A stretch of DNA of 64,000 bases from Roseateles sp. Its GTDB lineage: Bacteria > Pseudomonadota > Gammaproteobacteria > Burkholderiales > Burkholderiaceae_C. The notes below the pieces were generated by a model that ran no database searches, was not told the origin of the DNA, and worked only from the letters and a program-made list of their open reading frames with translations. Made by a program: the position numbers and the translations under genes. Positions within the stretch are counted from its first letter, which is position 1. Each line of letters begins with the position of its first letter. The DNA lies in contig NZ_JASGIV010000001.1 of NCBI RefSeq assembly GCF_047654805.1, forward strand, positions 5,217,259 through 5,281,258, given 5' to 3'. This document shows, one piece after another, positions 1,508-36,405 of this stretch.

Positions 1508-2131
1508 TCAAGGCGTCGCCAGCGACGCGAGCTGCCAGGCTGCGAATCCCGCGAGCAGCACCGCCGACCCGCGCCGTATCCAGCGCAGGTGTACTGCCTG
1601 CATGCGCTCGCGCAAGCGGCTCACCAAGCCCACCAGCACCAACCACCAGACCGCAGAGCCCAGGAAGACGCCGGCGATCATCCATGCTGGCGATGCCATC
1701 GTCAGGCCCGCAGCCAGCGACGAGAAAACCGCGATGAAGGACAGGATGGTTGCTGGGTTGGACAGCGTCAGCAAGAAGGTGCCGCCGAATGCATGCCAGC
1801 CCCTGACGCCGCCCTTGGCGGCGGCCGCCTGCCCGGCTTGTGCGCCATGCCAGGCGGTCCAGGCCAGCCACAACAGAAAGAGCGCTCCGCCCACCGCCAG
1901 CGGGGCGCGCGCCTCGGTCAGCAGCCGGATCACCGCCGTCACGCCGAAGGCACCGATCGCGCCGTAGAGGGCATCCGCGACGGCCGCGCCCAGGCCGGTG
2001 GCCAAGCCGACGCGCGCGCCATGGTCCAGCGTGCGCTGGATACATAGCAGGCCGATGGGGCCGACGGGTGCGGCAATGGACAGGCCGATCAGGGCCGATT
2101 TGAGGAGCAGGGGCAGGGGCGAAGCTTCCAT
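1508..2131 (-). CDS. LysE/ArgO-family amino-acid exporter
   Basis: 207 aa, polytopic and hydrophobic. The N-terminus (LIGLSIAAPVGPIGLLCIQRT) and the TLSNPATILSF motif are typical of LysE/RhtB translocators. It is divergent from an Lrp/AsnC regulator. Confidence 0.85.
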   Translation of the reverse strand: MEASPLPLLLKSALIGLSIAAPVGPIGLLCIQRTLDHGARVGLATGLGAAVADALYGAIGAFGVTAVIRLLTEARAPLAVGGALFLLWLAWTAWHGAQAGQAAAAKGGVRGWHAFGGTFLLTLSNPATILSFIAVFSSLAAGLTMASPAWMIAGVFLGSAVWWLVLVGLVSRLRERMQAVHLRWIRRGSAVLLAGFAAWQLASLATP

Positions 2132-2219: not shown

Positions 2220-2666
2220 GTGATTGGCATGGTGGATGAGAAGGCCTGGCGCATTCTGTCGGCGCTGCAGGAGGATGCTCGCGTGTCCCTGAAGACGCTG
2301 GCCGAGATCGCCGGGCTGTCACTGCCGGCCACGGCCGAACGGGTCCGGAAGATGGAGGCAGCCGGCCTCATCCGTGGGTATCACGCCGATATCGCGCCGG
2401 AAGCCCTAGGCTATGTCATCAAAGCCGTGGTGGCCATCACGACCCAGCATCCCTACAAGCAGAAGTTCATCGAGGTGCTGAGGGCCAAGCCGCAGGTGCT
2501 GGAGTGCCTGCACGTGACCGGGGCGGACTCCTGCCTGTTCACCGTGGTCGCGAAGGACATGCAGGACCTGGAGCAGTTCCTCGCCAGCATCAATCAGTAT
2601 GGCGAGACGCGCACATCCATCGTGATGTCATCGCAAATCCCGCGCCGTGGGGTGCAGCGGTTCTAG
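2220..2666 (+). CDS. Lrp/AsnC-family transcriptional regulator
   Basis: 148 aa. N-terminal HTH (WRILSALQEDARVSLKTLAEIAGLSLPATAERVRKMEAAGLI) plus a C-terminal RAM/AsnC_trans_reg-like half. The start is GTG2220, with ATG2229 as an alternative. Confidence 0.85.
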   Translation: MIGMVDEKAWRILSALQEDARVSLKTLAEIAGLSLPATAERVRKMEAAGLIRGYHADIAPEALGYVIKAVVAITTQHPYKQKFIEVLRAKPQVLECLHVTGADSCLFTVVAKDMQDLEQFLASINQYGETRTSIVMSSQIPRRGVQRF

Positions 2667-30042: not shown

Positions 30043-30849
30043 ATGACCGCCACCCTCGCCGCCCTGCGCAAGTCGCGCCGCGTCAGCCAGCTTGAGCTGT
30101 CGCTGCGCACCGGCGTCTCGCAACGCCACCTCAGCTGCATCGAGACCGGCCGTTCCCGAGCCGGCCGGGAGACGCTGTTCGCCCTGCTCGATGCCCTAGG
30201 CGCCACACTGGAGGAACGCAACCAGGCCCTGCTTGCCGCAGGCTATGCGCCGGCCCACGCCCAGCGCGCGCTTGACGCGCCCGAGATGGCGCCCGTGCGC
30301 GCCGCACTGGAGCAACTGATCCATGCCAATGGCGCGGCGCCGGCCCTGGTGCTGGACGGCGAGTACAACGTGGTCATGGCCAATGCCGGCCTCGCGCGAC
30401 TGCTGGCGCTGCTGGGACTACCGGCCGAGCAGCTGCTTGCCCAACCACTGAACCTGCTGCGCGCCGTCTTCGCACCGGGTGGCCTGCGTACGCTGTGCGT
30501 GGACGAGGCCTGGCTGTGCAACGAGATGTGGGCTCGGGCCAGCCGCGAGGCCGAGCACCTGCCGCGCCTGCGCGCGCTGCTCGACGAGCTGCGTCCCGAG
30601 CTGCAGCCTTGGGTCGCCACCGAGGCGGGCAACCTGCCCGTGCTGGCCTTTCGCCTGCAGGCGGCCGACGGGCGCGTGCTCAGCTTCTTCTCCACCATCA
30701 CCAGCTTCGGCACGCCGCTTGACATCACGCTGGCGTCGCTGAAGGTGGAGCACCTGTTTCCCGCCGACGAGGACACCCGATGTGCGCTGGCTGAGATTGC
30801 TGGTCCCGGCGAGCCTGAAGGATTTCCGCAACGATTTCCCTGGCCCTAG
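30043..30849 (+). CDS. XRE-family HTH regulator with an MmyB-like C-terminal domain
   Basis: The N-terminal HTH_31-like region is LRKSRRVSQLELSLRTGVSQRHLSCIETGRS. The remaining ~200 aa resemble the MmyB-like ligand-binding domain. Confidence 0.8.
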   Translation: MTATLAALRKSRRVSQLELSLRTGVSQRHLSCIETGRSRAGRETLFALLDALGATLEERNQALLAAGYAPAHAQRALDAPEMAPVRAALEQLIHANGAAPALVLDGEYNVVMANAGLARLLALLGLPAEQLLAQPLNLLRAVFAPGGLRTLCVDEAWLCNEMWARASREAEHLPRLRALLDELRPELQPWVATEAGNLPVLAFRLQAADGRVLSFFSTITSFGTPLDITLASLKVEHLFPADEDTRCALAEIAGPGEPEGFPQRFPWP

Positions 30850-31400
30850 AGGCCCGATGTGGGCATGTGCCGGAGTGCGGCGCCGACGAGATAGGTGCCG
30901 AACGCGCCCAGGGCGCACGGCAGGGGGCTTGGCCAGCGTGGACGAGCCCAGCATGCCGACCAGAAACAGATCGCGCGGCGCGGTGACTGAACGACGCTCC
31001 TGCCGGCCCATGATGCGGTCGTTTGCATCCCGGCGAGGTAGATCAGCGGTGCCAGCAATGCAACGTACTCGGCCGTGCCCGCAGCGTGCGCACATTGCGC
31101 TGACGTCGAGGTCGCTGAGGACGAGCGGGAACGCGCAGGACATCGTCCCGTCCCAGCCAGGAGGCGTGCTGCGGCGCGAACAGCTCGACGGTCAACCGGC
31201 AGTCCCCGTCGTTGTCGTGGGCGTGCCCGTCGGTCCGGGGCTCACCGGAATCTCGCAATGCACCTCTTCGTGGACGCCCGGGTGGAGGAAGGTGCAATCG
31301 AGCGCCTAGGCGCATGACTTGGCCATGGGGTTCGCTTTGCGGTGACGAATGCACTTGCCAAAACCGACGCGCCTCTCTGGAGCGCCAGGTCATCTAGGCA
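30850..31400 (-). pseudogene. degenerate region: probable frameshifted gene remnants (possible membrane-protein C-terminus)
   Basis: No intact ORF has a plausible composition. Minus-strand frames alternate between membrane-like snippets (GTAEYVALLAPLIYLAGMQT / DLFLVGMLGSSTLAK / ALGAFGTYLVGAAL), and each is interrupted by a frame change. Confidence 0.3.
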
Positions 31401-31417
31401 GTATCCCTGATGGTCAT

Positions 31418-31446
31418 CGATTTGTTAGTTGTAAACAATACTAATA
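31418..31446 (+). promoter_or_regulatory. AT-rich putative operator/promoter immediately upstream of the TrmB-like regulator
   Basis: This is the lowest-GC stretch I noticed in the window (cgatttgttagttgtaaacaatactaata). It contains TTAGT-N10-ACTAA (31425-31444) and TTGT-AA-ACAA inverted repeats that abut ATG31447. No Shine-Dalgarno is visible. Confidence 0.35.
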
Positions 31447-32280
31447 ATGAGTGATGACGATCTACAGGGCCGGGCGCTGCTTCCGTTCGGTTTCACCGAA
31501 CTGGAGTCGCGGGTGTACTGCGCCCTGCTGAGCCAATCGCCAGCGACGGGGTACAAGCTGGCACGCGCCGTCGGCAAGGCGGCCGCCAACACCTACCAGG
31601 CGCTCGCCGTGCTGGTTCAGAAGGGCGCGGTCATCGGCGATGAGTCCGAACCGCGCAGCTTCCGGCCCGTGCCGCCCGCCGAACTCTTCTCGCGCCTGCG
31701 GCATTCGTTCGACGAGCAGGCGCAGGTGGCCGAGCAGCGCCTGTCAGCGCTGTTCGCTCCATCGCCGGAGGACCGGCTCTATCAGCTGAAGAACCTGCCA
31801 CAGGCGCTGGAGCGCGCTCGCACGCTGATTGCCAGTGCCCGCGAGACCTTGCTGTTCGACTTGTTCCCTATGCCGCTAGCGCAGCTGCGCCCGGAACTGG
31901 ATGCGGCCCATGCGCGCGGCGTGCTGGTGGGCGGCACGACGTACGAGCCGCTGGGCGATGCGGGCTTCACGCACCTGTTGTCGCCGGGCGCCGGCTCAGT
32001 CGCCGAGCGCTGGCCGGGCCACCAGATCACGTTGATCGCAGACGGCCGCGAAGTCCTGCTGGCCTTGGTGGCGCCCAACGGGCTTTCGCTGCACCACGGT
32101 TTCTGGAGCGATTCGGCCTACTTGGCCTGCCTGCACCACTCCGGCCTGGCGGCCGAGATGCGGCTGTCGGCGACGCTGGCAGAAGGGGCGACAGACCCCT
32201 TGCGCCGCTTTGGCCTGCTGAGCGCGGCGCCTGACGGGTTGCGCGGGCTGGTGGGGCGCGAACCGGAGTCCGTTGCATGA
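31447..32280 (+). CDS. TrmB-family transcriptional regulator
   Basis: 277 aa. The N-terminal wHTH is FGFTELESRVYCALLSQSPATGYKLARAVGKAAANTYQALAVLVQKGAV, and the protein has a long C-terminal domain as in TrmB-type regulators. Confidence 0.8.
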   Translation: MSDDDLQGRALLPFGFTELESRVYCALLSQSPATGYKLARAVGKAAANTYQALAVLVQKGAVIGDESEPRSFRPVPPAELFSRLRHSFDEQAQVAEQRLSALFAPSPEDRLYQLKNLPQALERARTLIASARETLLFDLFPMPLAQLRPELDAAHARGVLVGGTTYEPLGDAGFTHLLSPGAGSVAERWPGHQITLIADGREVLLALVAPNGLSLHHGFWSDSAYLACLHHSGLAAEMRLSATLAEGATDPLRRFGLLSAAPDGLRGLVGREPESVA

Positions 32281-33548
32281 CCTCGCGATCGTCGCTTCTT
32301 CCGAAAGCCGCCGCGTCCTGGCGAGTGCTGCTGGTTGTCGCTGCACTGCACCTGGCGGGGACGGTACGGGCCGAGCCGCTGTCGTTGCAGCAGGCACTGA
32401 GCAGCAACGATGTGGAGCGCCTGGAACAGCTGGCCAAGTCCTCGGGGCTGCAGGCTGGCGTGGCCCGGGCAGTGGCCTTGTCGCTGCGCCACCGGGACAC
32501 GCAGGCACGGCCCGCGCTGGAGCTTGCTGTCGCATCTGTGGCCGCTCCAGAGGAGCGCTTCGCGGCGCTGCAGGAGCTTGCGGCCCTGAACACGCGCCAG
32601 GGGCGCTATCAGACGGCTGCGCAGGCGCTGGATGCTGCCGCCCGGCTCAAGCCGCTGGATCGGGAGAGCGAGCAGGCGCGCAGCTTCCTGCACGCGCTGG
32701 CAGCGGTGCCGCCAATGCGGGTAGAGGCTTCGCCCCGGGCGCGCTTGCCCGTGACGCGTGACGCGGCTGGCCTGGCCCGCGTCAATGGCAGTGTGGCGGG
32801 CGGGGCACAGGATTTCGTCGTCGACACCGGCGCGGCGTTCTCTACGGTGACCGTTTCGGCCGCAAAGCGGCTCGGTTTGCAGATGCTGGACACCGAGGCC
32901 AGCGTTGGCGGCGTCGCCCGCGATGCAGTGGCGACCCGCTTCGCGGTGGGGGCGGAGCTGCGGCTGGGCCAGGCAGTCCTGCACGACGTCGTATTCATCG
33001 TGCTGCCGGACGAAGCGCTCAGTTTCGCCGGCGGCGCCTACCGAATCGACGCGATCCTGGGCCTGCCGGTCTTCCTTCAGCTGGGGCGCCTGGCCATCGA
33101 GACGCGCGACGGGCAGGAGCAGCTGATGCTCGGGGCCGCCGCACCGACCACGACGCAGGCTCCGAACCTCATCCTGAGCGGGGTGCAGCCACTGTTGCTG
33201 GCGCGCAGCGAGGCGGCAGGGCAGACCTTGCGCCTGTTCGTGGACACCGGTGCACGCAGCAGCCAGCTGTTTCGCAATGCCGCCGACGAGTCGCCGTTGC
33301 TGATGAAGGGCGCAGCCGCTCGACCACACACGCTCAGCGGTGCCGGAGGCTCCAGCACCGACGACGAGGCGCGCGTGCTGCCGCGGCTGGATCTGCGGCT
33401 CGGCGACAGCGTCGTCGAACTGCACGATGTCGTGCTGCTGTCCAAGGCCGCCACCGACCGGCACGGCGCGGTGGGTCAGGATCTGCTGCGCCAGGGGCAT
33501 GGCTACGTGATGGACTTCGAGCGCATGTGCCTGATCCTGCTGCGCTAG
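32277..33548 (+). CDS. secreted retropepsin-like aspartic protease with two DTG motifs in one chain
   Basis: 423 aa with an ATGA overlap with the regulator. It has a signal peptide (WRVLLVVAALHLAGTVRAEP) and a helical N-terminal region. Two aspartyl-protease signatures follow: DFVVDTGAAFSTV and RLFVDTGARSSQL. Confidence 0.8.
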   Translation: MTSRSSLLPKAAASWRVLLVVAALHLAGTVRAEPLSLQQALSSNDVERLEQLAKSSGLQAGVARAVALSLRHRDTQARPALELAVASVAAPEERFAALQELAALNTRQGRYQTAAQALDAAARLKPLDRESEQARSFLHALAAVPPMRVEASPRARLPVTRDAAGLARVNGSVAGGAQDFVVDTGAAFSTVTVSAAKRLGLQMLDTEASVGGVARDAVATRFAVGAELRLGQAVLHDVVFIVLPDEALSFAGGAYRIDAILGLPVFLQLGRLAIETRDGQEQLMLGAAAPTTTQAPNLILSGVQPLLLARSEAAGQTLRLFVDTGARSSQLFRNAADESPLLMKGAAARPHTLSGAGGSSTDDEARVLPRLDLRLGDSVVELHDVVLLSKAATDRHGAVGQDLLRQGHGYVMDFERMCLILLR

Positions 33549-33636
33549 CGCGCGCCACGCCCACCCACCCAACATCACGACCGAGGCCCATGCAAGCCCC
33601 CAACGTCCTTGCTGCTGGGCAGCCCGGCATGCGGCT

Positions 33637-34476
33637 ATGAGTGCAAGGGTCCTGCATGCACCAGCCGGGTGGCGGGCTCGCATTCGCAGGCGCCCGGTGC
33701 TGTGCTTCTACTTGCTGACGCTCGGGCTGTCCTGGAGCTACTGGCTCGGCCTGCTGGCTATGGGGCAGCGGGTAGGGCCGGGCTCGCCAGCGACGCACTT
33801 CCCGGGGCTGCTCGGGCCACTGGTCGCGGCGCTGATCGTCGTAGCGCTCGAATCCGGGCCGCAGGGGGTGTGGCGCTGGATCGGTCTGGCCTTCCGGTGG
33901 CCAGGTCTGCCGCTCTGGTGGCAAGGGCTCTCGCCGCTGCTGCTCGGAGCGCTCGCCTTCAGCCTCCTGCGCCTTGCCGGACATGCCTGGCCGGAGGTGT
34001 CGGAGTTCACCCGCTTTCCCGGCCTGCCGCAAGGATGGCCGCTGGCGGCGGTGATGATCGTGATCCTGGTGGTGAACGGCCTCGGCGAGGAGGGCGGCTG
34101 GCGCGGCTTCGCCCTGCCGCGGCTGCTCCAGAGGCATGGCCGCTTTGGCGCGACCTGGCGCGTCTGGGCCCTCTGGGCGCTGTGGCACGCGCCGCTGTTC
34201 TGGCTCAATCAGAGCATGCACGCCATGCTCGGTCCGACCCTGCTGGGGTGGGCCCTCGGCCTGTTCTGCGGCGCCTTCGTGTTGGCTCAGCTGCAGTTGC
34301 GCAGCGCCGGCAGCGTGCTGCCTGTTGCCCTCTGGCATGCCAGCTACAACCTGATGGTGGCTTCCGGGGCCGGAGTGGGCAGCGCCGCCATGCTGTGCAG
34401 TGCGGCGGTGATGGCATGGGGGATGGTCGTGGCGCGCCTCTGGTGGCGGGACGAGCGTGGGGGCGCACACGTGTAG
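33637..34476 (+). CDS. CPBP-family (CAAX/Abi-type) intramembrane glutamic endopeptidase
   Basis: 279 aa, polytopic. Motif 1 is GLGEEGGWRGFALPRL, followed by FWLNQ and LWHASYN (HxxxN). Confidence 0.85.
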   Translation: MSARVLHAPAGWRARIRRRPVLCFYLLTLGLSWSYWLGLLAMGQRVGPGSPATHFPGLLGPLVAALIVVALESGPQGVWRWIGLAFRWPGLPLWWQGLSPLLLGALAFSLLRLAGHAWPEVSEFTRFPGLPQGWPLAAVMIVILVVNGLGEEGGWRGFALPRLLQRHGRFGATWRVWALWALWHAPLFWLNQSMHAMLGPTLLGWALGLFCGAFVLAQLQLRSAGSVLPVALWHASYNLMVASGAGVGSAAMLCSAAVMAWGMVVARLWWRDERGGAHV

Positions 34477-34556
34477 GCAAGGCGCCTGCAGTCTTGCGCC
34501 GGTATCTGTCGCAGGCGCGCTATCGTTGCCGCCCTTAGCAAGCCACGTCCTGACCC

Positions 34557-35078
34557 ATGCCCCGCTATGTCGCCCTGCTTCGCGGAGTCAGTCCGATGAA
34601 CTGCCGGATGGCGGTCCTCAAGCGCTGCCTGGAGGCGGCCGGCTTCACGGACGTGAAGACGCTGCTGAGCAGCGGCAATGTCGCCTTCAGCACGCCACGG
34701 GCGGCCTCGGCGGCGGCGCTTCAGAAGCGCGTCGAGACCGCAATGCTGGCAGGCGCTGGCTACCGATTCGCGACCATCGTGCGCAGCACCGCGCACCTGC
34801 AGCAGCTGCTCCACGCCCAACCGTTCGCGCGGCACGAGTTGCCGGCGGGCGGCAAGTGCGTCGTGACCTTCTTGCGCGAGCCCGATGCGGTGGTGGAGGT
34901 CGAGCTGCCCCTCACGCTGGACGATGCCACCGTGCTCGAGCGCAGCGGTGGCGAGGTTTTCTGCGTCTACGTGCCCAACGACAAGGGGCCGGCCTTCATG
35001 CGGCTGCTGGAGAAGGCCTTCGGCAAGTCCATCACGACGCGCACGCTGGACACCGTAGCCCGCTGCGCAGAGGCCTGA
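34557..35078 (+). CDS. DUF1697-family protein
   Basis: 173 aa. The N-terminus YVALLRGVSPMNCRMAVLKRCLEAAGFTDVKTLLSSGNVAF is characteristic of DUF1697. Confidence 0.75.
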   Translation: MPRYVALLRGVSPMNCRMAVLKRCLEAAGFTDVKTLLSSGNVAFSTPRAASAAALQKRVETAMLAGAGYRFATIVRSTAHLQQLLHAQPFARHELPAGGKCVVTFLREPDAVVEVELPLTLDDATVLERSGGEVFCVYVPNDKGPAFMRLLEKAFGKSITTRTLDTVARCAEA

Positions 35079-35100
35079 CGCTGCCGCCGTCCGCCGCGTC

Positions 35101-36405
35101 TCAGTCCTCGCCGGCCTCGGGAAGATGGATCAGCCCGGTGTGGAAGTCGTACTCGAAGACCTCGCCGTAGCGCGCCCATTCGATGGCCACGCGCAGCACG
35201 CGCTCCGCCTCGGCGGCGTCCATGCTGTCCATCAGCAGCTTCAGGAAGGGCTCTTCCTTCAACTCGCCGTGGGCCTCCTGCTCAAGGCTGTGGCGGATGA
35301 AGGTTGCCAGCGGCACATGTGCGAGCAACTGCTGGCCGAAGATCTCGCGACGGAACTCGTGGCTTCCCTCGACGTAGCGATGACCCAGCGGCGTCATCAG
35401 CAGATCGCCGCCGCTGAGCTGCGCCAGGCCCAGGCGATGCAGTGCATCGGCCAGCGGCAGCACGGCCTCGTCGGTGAGCTCGCTTTCCTCCACCAGTTGC
35501 GGCAGGTCGGCGCGGCCTTTGAAGGGGTCGTCGGCCAGCAGCTCCAGCAGGCTCTCCATGCGGCCCACCTCGGCTTCGGGCAGGCGATCGGACAGGTGCG
35601 GCTTTGCGGGCTCCCCGGCAGCGCCCGGGATGCCGCCAACAGGCGTGGCACTGGTCATCAGCTTGTAGACCTCGTCGATGAGCAGCCGCACCTCCGCACT
35701 GTCGGCGCGGCGCGGGCGTGGCAGCGTGATGGGAAGTTCGGCGCGCACGCGGCCCGGGTTGCTCGCGAAGATCAGCACGCGGTCGGCCATCATGACGGCC
35801 TCCTCGATGTTGTGCGAGACGACGAGCATCGCCTGCGTGGGCATCTGGCCGCCGTCCCACAGCTCCAGGATCTCGTTGCGCAGTCGCTCTCCGGTCAGCA
35901 CGTCCAGCGCCGAGAAGGCCTCGTCCATCAGCAGCACGGCCGGCTGCATGACCAGCGCCCGCGCCAGGCCCACGCGCTGGCGCATGCCGCCCGACAGCTC
36001 GCGCGGCAGGGCGCCCTCGAAGCCTGCGAGGCCGATCAGCTCGATGGCGGCTTCGGCGCGCTGTGCGCGTTCCGTCTCGCCGACGCCGGCCGCCTCCAGG
36101 CCCAGCTCGACGTTCTGCTGCACGGTCAGCCAGGGAAACAGGGCGAAGCTCTGGAACACCATCGCGATGCCATGGGCAGGGCCGAACAGCGGCTGGCCGC
36201 GGTAGTGCACGTCGCCGGCATCAGCCGGGATCAGGCCTGCCATGATGCGCAGCAGCGTGCTCTTGCCTGAGCCCGACTGGCCCAGCAGCGCGACGATCTC
36301 GCCCTTGGCCAGCGTGAAGTCCACGCGCTCCAGCACCGTGCGCAGGCTGCCGTCTGCGGACTTGAAGCCCTTGGCGACGTCCTTCAGTTCGATCAAGGTG
36401 TCCAT
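35101..36405 (-). CDS. ABC transporter ATP-binding protein (NitT/TauT-type) with a C-terminal accessory domain
   Basis: Walker A LLGQSGSGKSTLLRIM, signature LSGGMRQRVGLARAL, Walker B LLMDEAFSALD. A ~180-aa C-terminal extension follows. Confidence 0.9.
   Translation of the reverse strand: MDTLIELKDVAKGFKSADGSLRTVLERVDFTLAKGEIVALLGQSGSGKSTLLRIMAGLIPADAGDVHYRGQPLFGPAHGIAMVFQSFALFPWLTVQQNVELGLEAAGVGETERAQRAEAAIELIGLAGFEGALPRELSGGMRQRVGLARALVMQPAVLLMDEAFSALDVLTGERLRNEILELWDGGQMPTQAMLVVSHNIEEAVMMADRVLIFASNPGRVRAELPITLPRPRRADSAEVRLLIDEVYKLMTSATPVGGIPGAAGEPAKPHLSDRLPEAEVGRMESLLELLADDPFKGRADLPQLVEESELTDEAVLPLADALHRLGLAQLSGGDLLMTPLGHRYVEGSHEFRREIFGQQLLAHVPLATFIRHSLEQEAHGELKEEPFLKLLMDSMDAAEAERVLRVAIEWARYGEVFEYDFHTGLIHLPEAGED

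Follow-up and report, generated by a model that had tools for sequence, protein, structure and literature searches.

A TrmB-like regulator and a predicted exported two-lobed aspartic protease form a recurring gene pair with a candidate operator in Roseateles and distant bacteria

Organization of the locus

Here we describe three consecutive genes in a 64-kilobase (kb) stretch of the Roseateles sp. assembly GCF_047654805.1 (contig NZ_JASGIV010000001.1, positions 5,217,259 to 5,281,258 of the forward strand); the whole stretch of 64,000 nucleotides (nt) is referred to as the window, and all positions are counted within it. According to its list of open reading frames (ORFs), the three genes lie on the plus strand and encode a TrmB-type regulator of 277 amino acids (aa; 31447–32280), a protease of 423 aa (32277–33548) and a CPBP-family intramembrane protease of 279 aa (33637–34476). 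The first two genes, hereafter the pair, meet in an ATGA at 32277–32280, where the TGA stop codon of the regulator (32278–32280) shares bases with the ATG of the protease (32277–32279). As read from the sequence, the protease gene has its own Shine-Dalgarno motif, GGAG, within the regulator gene (32265–32268, plus strand), 8 nt before the ATG. A gap of 88 nt (33549–33636) separates the protease gene from the CPBP gene, and neither this gap nor the rest of 30800–35200 contains a T-rich hairpin or terminator-like site on the plus strand. At the start of the regulator gene lies the 30-mer with the lowest GC content of the whole window (31420–31449, GC 0.20, with 0.69 for the window overall).

An original prediction, made from the letters alone, had drawn attention to the three genes, the ATGA overlap, the 88-nt gap and the AT-rich start with its inverted repeats, all of which were found where it had placed them. 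Its view that the overlap is unusual for a cytoplasmic regulator and an exported enzyme did not hold, as a 4-nt overlap is ordinary operon architecture. It had also taken the three genes for an acquired cassette, which can be followed only in part: the GC content of the module equals that of its flanks (0.70 vs 0.68), so that composition shows no sign of recent acquisition, but the genes that flank the pair differ in every relative, which indicates that the pair does change its genomic context.

A predicted exported, single-chain aspartic endopeptidase

The Pfam matches of the protease were confined to PF13650 (Asp_protease_2), PF13975 and PF09668, gag-asp_proteas included, with PF13650 recognized in two separate stretches (6e-19, 69 bits against a cut-off of 24.3). 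The NCBIfam family TIGR02281 (clan_AA_DTGA) scored 39 bits, under its cut-off of 57.95. The chain starts with a signal peptide (aa 1–32, cut after A32, between VRA and EP) and continues with a TPR-like helical domain (aa 37–140) and two lobes, the first (aa 154–290) carrying D183-T-G-A (Asp codon at 32823–32825) and the second (aa 298–422) carrying D323-T-G-A (Asp codon at 33243–33245). In an alignment of 24 sequences, D183, G185, A186, S189, D323 and G325 are invariant, as are G262/P264 and G400/D402 (G400-Q-D402), which occupy the ILG/GxD positions of the respective lobes, and the N-termini of the homologues all finish in an AXA-type signal-peptidase site. The 30 homologues at E ≤1e-5 come from Roseateles/Pelomonas, Asticcacaulis, Alkalicaulis, Sphingomonas and Luteimonas and are annotated "retropepsin-like aspartic protease".

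An AlphaFold2 model built from the 24-sequence alignment (predicted local distance difference test, pLDDT, 91; predicted template-modelling score, pTM, 0.87) shows a low-confidence N-terminal helix corresponding to the signal peptide, eight helices over residues 37–140 and two beta-rich lobes over residues 154–422. When this model was compared with known structures using Foldseek, the putative endopeptidase 9iy9, an exported protein of Bacteroides fragilis released in 2025-08, matched over its full length (E 7e-26, template-modelling (TM) score 0.74 over 421 columns), followed by the bilobal enzymes plasmepsin, renin and chymosin (E about 1e-9, TM 0.44/0.55). A profile search of the PDB likewise returned 9iy9 (2e-30), together with designed TPR proteins over residues 81–132 and weak matches to DDI1, the Rickettsia ApRick protease (5c9b, 1e-3) and HIV protease. 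The Bacteroides protein is of nearly the same length as the window protease (420 vs 423 aa) and, like it, combines an N-terminal helical domain with two retropepsin-like lobes, although the two are only 18% identical; a literature search returned no paper on 9iy9 and no function for it. Taken together, the model and the two Asp motifs uphold the pseudo-dimer at the level of model and motif, and the protein is best described as a predicted exported, single-chain, two-lobed aspartic endopeptidase, much as the original prediction of a secreted protease with a two-Asp pseudo-dimeric fold had proposed.

This architecture sets the protease apart from the aspartic proteases to which it can be compared. 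It shares with the pepsin-like (A1) enzymes plasmepsin, renin and chymosin a single chain of two homologous lobes with one catalytic Asp each, but lacks sequence-level membership of that group, has lobes of retropepsin size (clan AA, PF13650 and PF13975) and carries an extra TPR-like domain. Its DTGA active-site motif recalls Rickettsia APRc (5c9b) and the TIGR02281 family, for which scores were weak (1e-3 and 39 bits, respectively); those proteins, unlike the window protease, are membrane-anchored single lobes acting as homodimers. The TIGR02281 family includes Caulobacter PerP, and the Rlo enzymes of Pseudomonas aeruginosa are also single-lobe proteins that need dimerization. Of the secreted retropepsin-like enzymes that have been studied in bacteria, the RloA proteases come closest; they have a retropepsin fold and N-terminal signal peptides, are encoded in an operon and are associated with envelope-related phenotypes (PMC12239564). 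The Rlo proteins are, however, RimB homologues, encoded in an operon with a transglutaminase-like membrane protein and an ATP-grasp protein rather than with a TrmB regulator (PMC12239564). Our literature search for PF13650 found only eukaryotic and retroelement contexts.

Two observations concern copies of the protease. Its best match was the 91% cluster representative P0001, with none at 100%, and a 100% cluster was listed for the regulator. A further cluster at 80% identity (P0003, Roseateles sp.) could be an artefact of the clustering or else point to a diverged second copy in the same genome; within the 64-kb window there is no second copy.

A TrmB-like regulator with a PLD-like domain

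The assignment of the first gene to the TrmB type was borne out by Pfam (TrmB, PF01978, 1e-14, 54.6 bits against a cut-off of 25.6; TrmB_EBD_N, PF11495, 3e-5, 23.8 bits against 22.2), by a PDB profile search (TrmB, 3qph, 1e-12 over residues 8–163; TrmBL2, 5e-10) and by Foldseek. The AlphaFold2 model of the regulator (pLDDT 89.7) has a winged helix-turn-helix (HTH), a long helix at residues 77–102 and an alpha/beta domain; its Foldseek matches were TrmBL2 (1e-11), TrmB (1e-10), the TrmB sugar-domain entry 2f5t (root-mean-square deviation 2.8 over 139 columns) and the PLD-fold nucleases NucT and Zucchini. It thereby resembles archaeal TrmB and TrmBL2 of Pyrococcus and Thermococcus in the winged HTH, the long dimerization helix and the PLD-like first effector subdomain. 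The C-terminal sugar-binding subdomain of the sugar sensors TrmB, TrmBL1 and Tgr is missing from the regulator, which ends at residue 277 and shows only helices after residue 224 in the model; TrmBL2 also lacks it. Unlike the archaeal proteins, the regulator is bacterial and its presumed target is a protease gene rather than sugar metabolism. It also falls far below the NCBIfam equivalogs (18–31 bits against cut-offs of 500–650), with 31 bits vs 650 for the TrmB comparison. As modelled, then, the protein is a TrmB-like one-component regulator with a PLD-like sensor domain and a TrmBL2-like architecture.

The regulator is widespread. We retrieved 324 homologues at E ≤1e-10, typically 50–60% identical and about 277 aa long, from sources such as Myxococcus, Brevundimonas, Gemmatimonadaceae and Steroidobacteraceae, and an exhaustive profile search yielded 475 clusters (50% identity) at E ≤1e-30; no plasmid copies were found. 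The C-terminal domain is conserved throughout, with the motifs LLFDLFP, RWPGxQ, WSDSxYLxCxxHxGLxxE and PxGL, and conserved positions of the sensor domain include W189-P-G, D199, W220-S-D-S, H231 and E237. Cys228 is present in at least 90% of homologues and Cys25, in helix alpha-1, in most of them. Both cysteines recall OxsR, an archaeal member of the TrmB family with a thiol switch that operates via Cys24 in an N-terminal helix (PMC9426492).

The regulator and the protease recur as neighbours in distant phyla

The conservation of the locus was surveyed by a genome scan, a metagenome scan (run with 16 closer sequences), 12 context look-ups and tblastn of the window neighbours against 73 loci. 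The regulator and protease genes were adjacent in 12/12 readable contexts, drawn from at least 4 bacterial lineages, with representatives in Beta- and Alphaproteobacteria, Myxococcus and Gemmatimonadaceae. Among the loci reached from the protease, the window, L001, L002, L003, L011, L013, L014 and L007 (Asticcacaulis) have the TrmB gene directly before the protease gene and in the same orientation, with the 4-nt overlap seen again in L002, L011 and L013. Reciprocally, all four regulator-seeded loci have an adjoining Asp_protease_2 gene. In three of these the gene encodes a larger, PDZ-bearing protease and overlaps the regulator gene by 4 nt (L069, Myxococcus stipitatus, 609 aa; L071, 606 aa; and L072/L073, Gemmatimonadaceae, 609 aa), and in the fourth, L070, the order is reversed, with a 440-aa protease gene followed by that of TrmB. 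Further regulator and protease matches can be paired by the equal lengths of their contigs, among them P0046/P0016, P0041/P0013 and P0040/P0011. Between Roseateles and Myxococcus the regulators are about 50% identical and the proteases 26%, the latter being collinear over both lobes. Judged from gene order and sequence comparison, the conserved unit is thus the regulator–protease pair with its own candidate operator, recurring in distant phyla. We found no description of a TrmB regulator paired with an aspartic protease in the literature searched.

The PDZ proteases differ in detail from that of the window. Those of L069 (5831–7660), L071 (5825–7645) and L072 (5834–7663) have DSGA in lobe 1; in lobe 2 of L069 and L071 the motif reads D-V/L-G-N, so that the second catalytic Asp is kept and the Thr/Ser is replaced. 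The TrmB-paired PDZ proteases also possess an N-terminal domain of about 250 aa for which the context look-ups gave no Pfam family. A candidate for a shared hydrolase partner was discarded, since the DLH gene that follows TrmB in L070 is not detectably related to the hydrolase gene of the Roseateles loci.

A palindrome conserved before the first gene of the pair

The AT-rich spot at the start of the regulator gene coincides with a candidate operator, a 20-base-pair (bp) imperfect palindrome, TTAGTTGT-aaac-AATACTAA (31425–31444), which ends 2 nt before the regulator ATG and has the general form TTAGTW-N8-WACTAA. By chance, its core TAGT-N10-ACTA would be expected 0.01 times per 64-kb window, and it was found once; in L001, L002, L003, L011 and L013, too, each 13-kb locus holds the exact core a single time and in the corresponding place. 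When the DNA preceding the regulator ATG was aligned, little proved to be kept beyond a -35-like CTTGCG and the dyad TTAGTTGY-N4-RCTACTAA, which ends 0–2 nt before the ATG; the operator columns were invariant in this alignment. A dyad precedes the first ATG of the pair within about 45 nt in 12/12 loci, and directly in most, with variants that preserve the symmetry in L007, L014, L069, L070, L071 and L072: it reads ATAGTA-N8-TACTAT and abuts the ATG in L072, TAGT-N10-ACTA spanning the ATG in L071, and TTATTA-N8-TAATAA, 9 nt before the ATG, in L069. In L070, where the order is protease first and the protease gene has an ordinary leader with GGAG, the dyad is a perfect palindrome, TTAGCAGCTTAAGCTGCTAA, and stands before the protease gene, so that it precedes the first gene whichever the gene order. 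The AT-rich spot with inverted repeats singled out by the original prediction was thus borne out as a dyad kept at the matching position in every related locus, and its pattern of conservation makes it very probably the binding site of the regulator. The TrmB-family regulators characterized to date repress via palindromes at or after the promoter, and autoregulation has been reported for them (PMC4158304), although the operators described, TACT-N3-AGTA, TGM and TACT-N7-8-GAGTA, are unlike the TTAGTW half-sites found here.

One could argue that the adjacency has no regulatory meaning, with the TrmB-like protein controlling other genes and the palindrome being no more than an AT-rich promoter or translation-initiation region. 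The closest structural match, TrmBL2, is indeed described as a chromatin-like global repressor (PMC3031468), and there is a single copy of the operator in the 64-kb window, from which a wider regulon cannot be judged. Against this, the dyad keeps its symmetry while its spacer and the surrounding DNA diverge, it moves before the protease gene in the reversed-order locus L070, and the pairing holds in every context read, all of which makes a meaningless adjacency very unlikely in our view.

Returning to an operator that would govern the pair, the window offers a candidate -35 element, TGGTCA (31412–31417, plus strand), which aligns with the conserved CTTGCG of the relatives, and a candidate -10 element, AACAAT (31434–31439, plus strand), which would lie inside the operator at a distance of 16 nt from the -35 and 7 nt from the ATG; each matches 4/6 positions. 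At the -10 place the relatives carry TACGCT or TAAGCT, with a spacing of 16–17 nt to the -35 and of about 7 nt to the ATG. The regulator ATG is not preceded by a Shine-Dalgarno motif, and this, with the spacing between -10 and ATG, points to a leaderless transcript. The regulator mRNA is therefore probably leaderless and, with its candidate -10 inside the dyad, probably autoregulated.

A proposed regulator–protease operon

Given these features, we think it likely that the pair constitutes a two-gene autorepressed operon, relieved by a signal, in which an exported two-Asp endopeptidase is translated together with its own regulator. A dimer of the TrmB-like protein would bind the palindrome at 31425–31444 and repress its own, presumably leaderless, mRNA; since this site extends over the candidate -10 and the likely start of transcription, binding would be expected to repress. 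A signal sensed by the PLD-like C-terminal domain, or possibly by the conserved cysteines, would then release the repressor. The protease would be translated from the mRNA of the regulator via its own GGAG, and the combination of GGAG and ATGA overlap on one mRNA would ensure that the two proteins are made together. After export by Sec and cleavage after A32, the protease would fold into a pseudo-dimer of one chain, each lobe contributing a catalytic Asp, the TPR-like domain (or PDZ in the other architecture) would most likely recruit protein substrates, and the enzyme would serve as an inducible endopeptidase, either periplasmic or extracellular. The CPBP protein would remain outside this conserved mechanism, as a lineage-specific downstream passenger possibly read through from the promoter of the pair.

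Several observations weigh against this model. The 12 contexts that were read, 8 reached via the protease and 4 via the regulator alone, make a small sample. In addition, a consensus promoter scan of 30800–35200 called no promoter at a threshold of 9/12; with the -35 and -10 of the window this weak, the promoter could lie further upstream, in which case the palindrome could be a roadblock or even an activator site. Moreover, more distantly related TPR-type proteases stand beside other regulators: a divergent PadR gene of 163–175 aa adjoins the protease gene in at least 7 loci (L008/L009, L012, L017, L019, L023, L027 and L029) and also at P0019, genes for DUF2975 and HTH_26 proteins adjoin it in 4–5 loci (L010, L016, L021 and L026), and no regulator adjoins it in L020, L022, L024 and L028. 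TPR-type proteases accompanied by PadR, by HTH_26 or by no regulator imply that the protease does not need TrmB specifically, and this clade of proteases appears to have been captured by at least 3 unrelated small regulators. The HTH_26 loci have a recognizable layout of their own, with the DUF2975 membrane protein, the HTH_26 regulator and the protease encoded on one strand by overlapping or abutting genes (L026, 3353–7437; L016, 241–2516; L021, 3373–5900). L026 has two tandem protease paralogues, preceded by a 427-aa ORF without a Pfam match.

The strict adjacency and the stop/start overlap across phyla, together with the unusual conservation of the regulator, would also suit a protease that cleaves the regulator, as in anti-repressor pairs such as ImmA/ImmR, IrrE/DdrO or BlaR1/BlaI. 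However, every homologue examined begins with an AXA-terminated signal peptide and lacks any other membrane segment, and a universal signal peptide should place the catalytic domain outside the cytoplasm, away from the DNA-bound regulator; the PadR and HTH_26 partners of the clade, too, fit a regulated gene better than a specific substrate. We consider cleavage of the regulator extremely unlikely.

The CPBP gene is a lineage-specific neighbour

The third gene was correctly assigned to the CPBP intramembrane proteases, as both Pfam (Rce1-like/CPBP, PF02517, 1e-11, 45 bits against a cut-off of 22.4) and motifs confirmed; the NCBIfam equivalog scored 34 bits against a cut-off of 425. Its conserved EEGGWR (E151-E152...R156), LWALWH and HASYN (H234) correspond to the EExxxR, FxxxH-like and HxxxN motifs of CPBP/Rce1-like proteases such as MmRce1, and by these residues the protein is predicted to be catalytically intact and looks functional. 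Abi proteins of the CPBP family are associated with bacteriocin immunity; no bacteriocin or prenylated-substrate genes lie close to the CPBP gene of the window.

It had been suggested that the regulator, the periplasmic aspartic protease and the CPBP protein form one three-part module for peptide processing, signalling or immunity. In favour of this, all three genes lie on one strand with short gaps and no terminator-like site between them, the catalytic motifs of the CPBP protein are intact, and 5 related loci (the window, L015, L003, L011 and L013) carry a CPBP gene further down from the pair, with operon-like gene spacing in L011. All five, however, belong to one lineage (proteases at least 60% identical), so that the arrangement can be inherited synteny, and the CPBP gene directly follows the protease gene only in the window and in L015, which matches the window at 94% and 91% identity for the two proteins. 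In the other three loci 2–3 unrelated genes intervene: SnoaL_4 and alpha/beta hydrolase genes in L003 and L013, and these plus AHSA1 in L011. No CPBP gene follows the pair in L001, L002, L007, L014 or L069–L073; in L002 a transposase gene closes the array, and in L001 the next gene encodes a chromate transporter and is oriented the other way. Rce1-like genes are, moreover, very common, and that of L072, only 26% identical to the window CPBP, belongs to a separate cluster that lies upstream of the pair and runs on the opposite strand. Finally, no small precursor-peptide ORF was seen, and the search for defence systems with PADLOC gave no hit better than E 0.0086. The three families are thus adjacent in one lineage only, contrary to what a conserved trio would entail, and with neither a precursor ORF nor a defence match a joint module is, in our estimation, quite unlikely.

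The simplest reading of these gene orders is that CPBP represents an operon extension of the Roseateles lineage whose downstream genes are being lost piecemeal, with the CPBP gene adjoining the protease gene in the window because the SnoaL_4, hydrolase and AHSA1 genes of the relatives are absent there. It may be co-transcribed with the pair in this strain, but should not be annotated as part of the regulator–protease system. The cluster that contains the Rce1-like gene of L072 (1077–4607, minus strand, upstream of the pair) comprises DinB_2/FGE-sulfatase, Methyltransf_33, Rce1-like and PadR genes, of which the Methyltransf_33 gene is presumably ergothioneine-like, judging by its look.

Implications

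The design proposed here is that of an ordinary repressor–target operon, and the gene families involved are all known; what is new is the pairing itself, of which we found no earlier description, together with its conservation across phyla and its defined candidate operator. Work on TrmB regulators has concerned archaea almost exclusively, and few retropepsin-like proteases of bacteria have been characterized in any depth. The locus offers a defined and testable setting for both, in that the candidate operator is conserved, one target gene stands out and the protease family already includes a solved structure (9iy9). A signal for the pair, if it is specific, would reveal the role of two-lobed exported aspartic proteases as well as the ligand of the PLD-like sensor, and the pseudo-dimer bears on a possible route from retropepsin-like lobes to pepsin-like enzymes.

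As a tentative extension, which we think rather doubtful, the pair may be a phylum-spanning one-component circuit of envelope stress or quality control, in which a cytoplasmic sensor of a metabolite or of redox state would control an exported protease that recognizes its substrates through TPR or PDZ domains. Such a circuit, if true, would provide both the first physiological role for single-chain retropepsin-like bacterial proteases and the first characterized bacterial TrmB regulon.

The upstream stretch and other features of the window

Between the gene for an MmyB-like regulator (30043–30849) and the ATG of the TrmB-like regulator lies a stretch of 597 nt (30850–31446) without a credible ORF. 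Its GC content is high, and frame-specific GC indicates a codon periodicity that is weak and frame-shifting. No match was found in Pfam (five ORFs, E up to 5) or Rfam, and a conceptual translation, obtained by concatenating minus-strand frames and searched by a word-plus-HMMER procedure, gave no homologue. The sole match to the proteins and loci of this study (tblastn and blastn), to a PadR C-terminus, was biased by composition and discounted. The about 550 bp of decayed sequence that the original prediction saw beside the module are therefore gene-less, over 597 nt, whereas their decay is not demonstrated and stays plausible but unproven. Several short inverted repeats are shared between the stretch and the MmyB gene at its 3' end.

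Across the entire window (1–64000), no Rfam family reached its gathering score. Downstream, 80 nt past the CPBP gene and on the same strand, lies a DUF1697 gene (34557–35078); in the tblastn comparison of window neighbours with the 73 loci, it was absent from the vicinity of the pair in every other locus. Among the 30-mers of the window, the one at 2187–2216 (GC 0.23) ranks second in AT content; it falls between the divergent ORFs 1508–2131 (minus strand) and 2220–2666 (plus strand) and is probably an ordinary promoter region.

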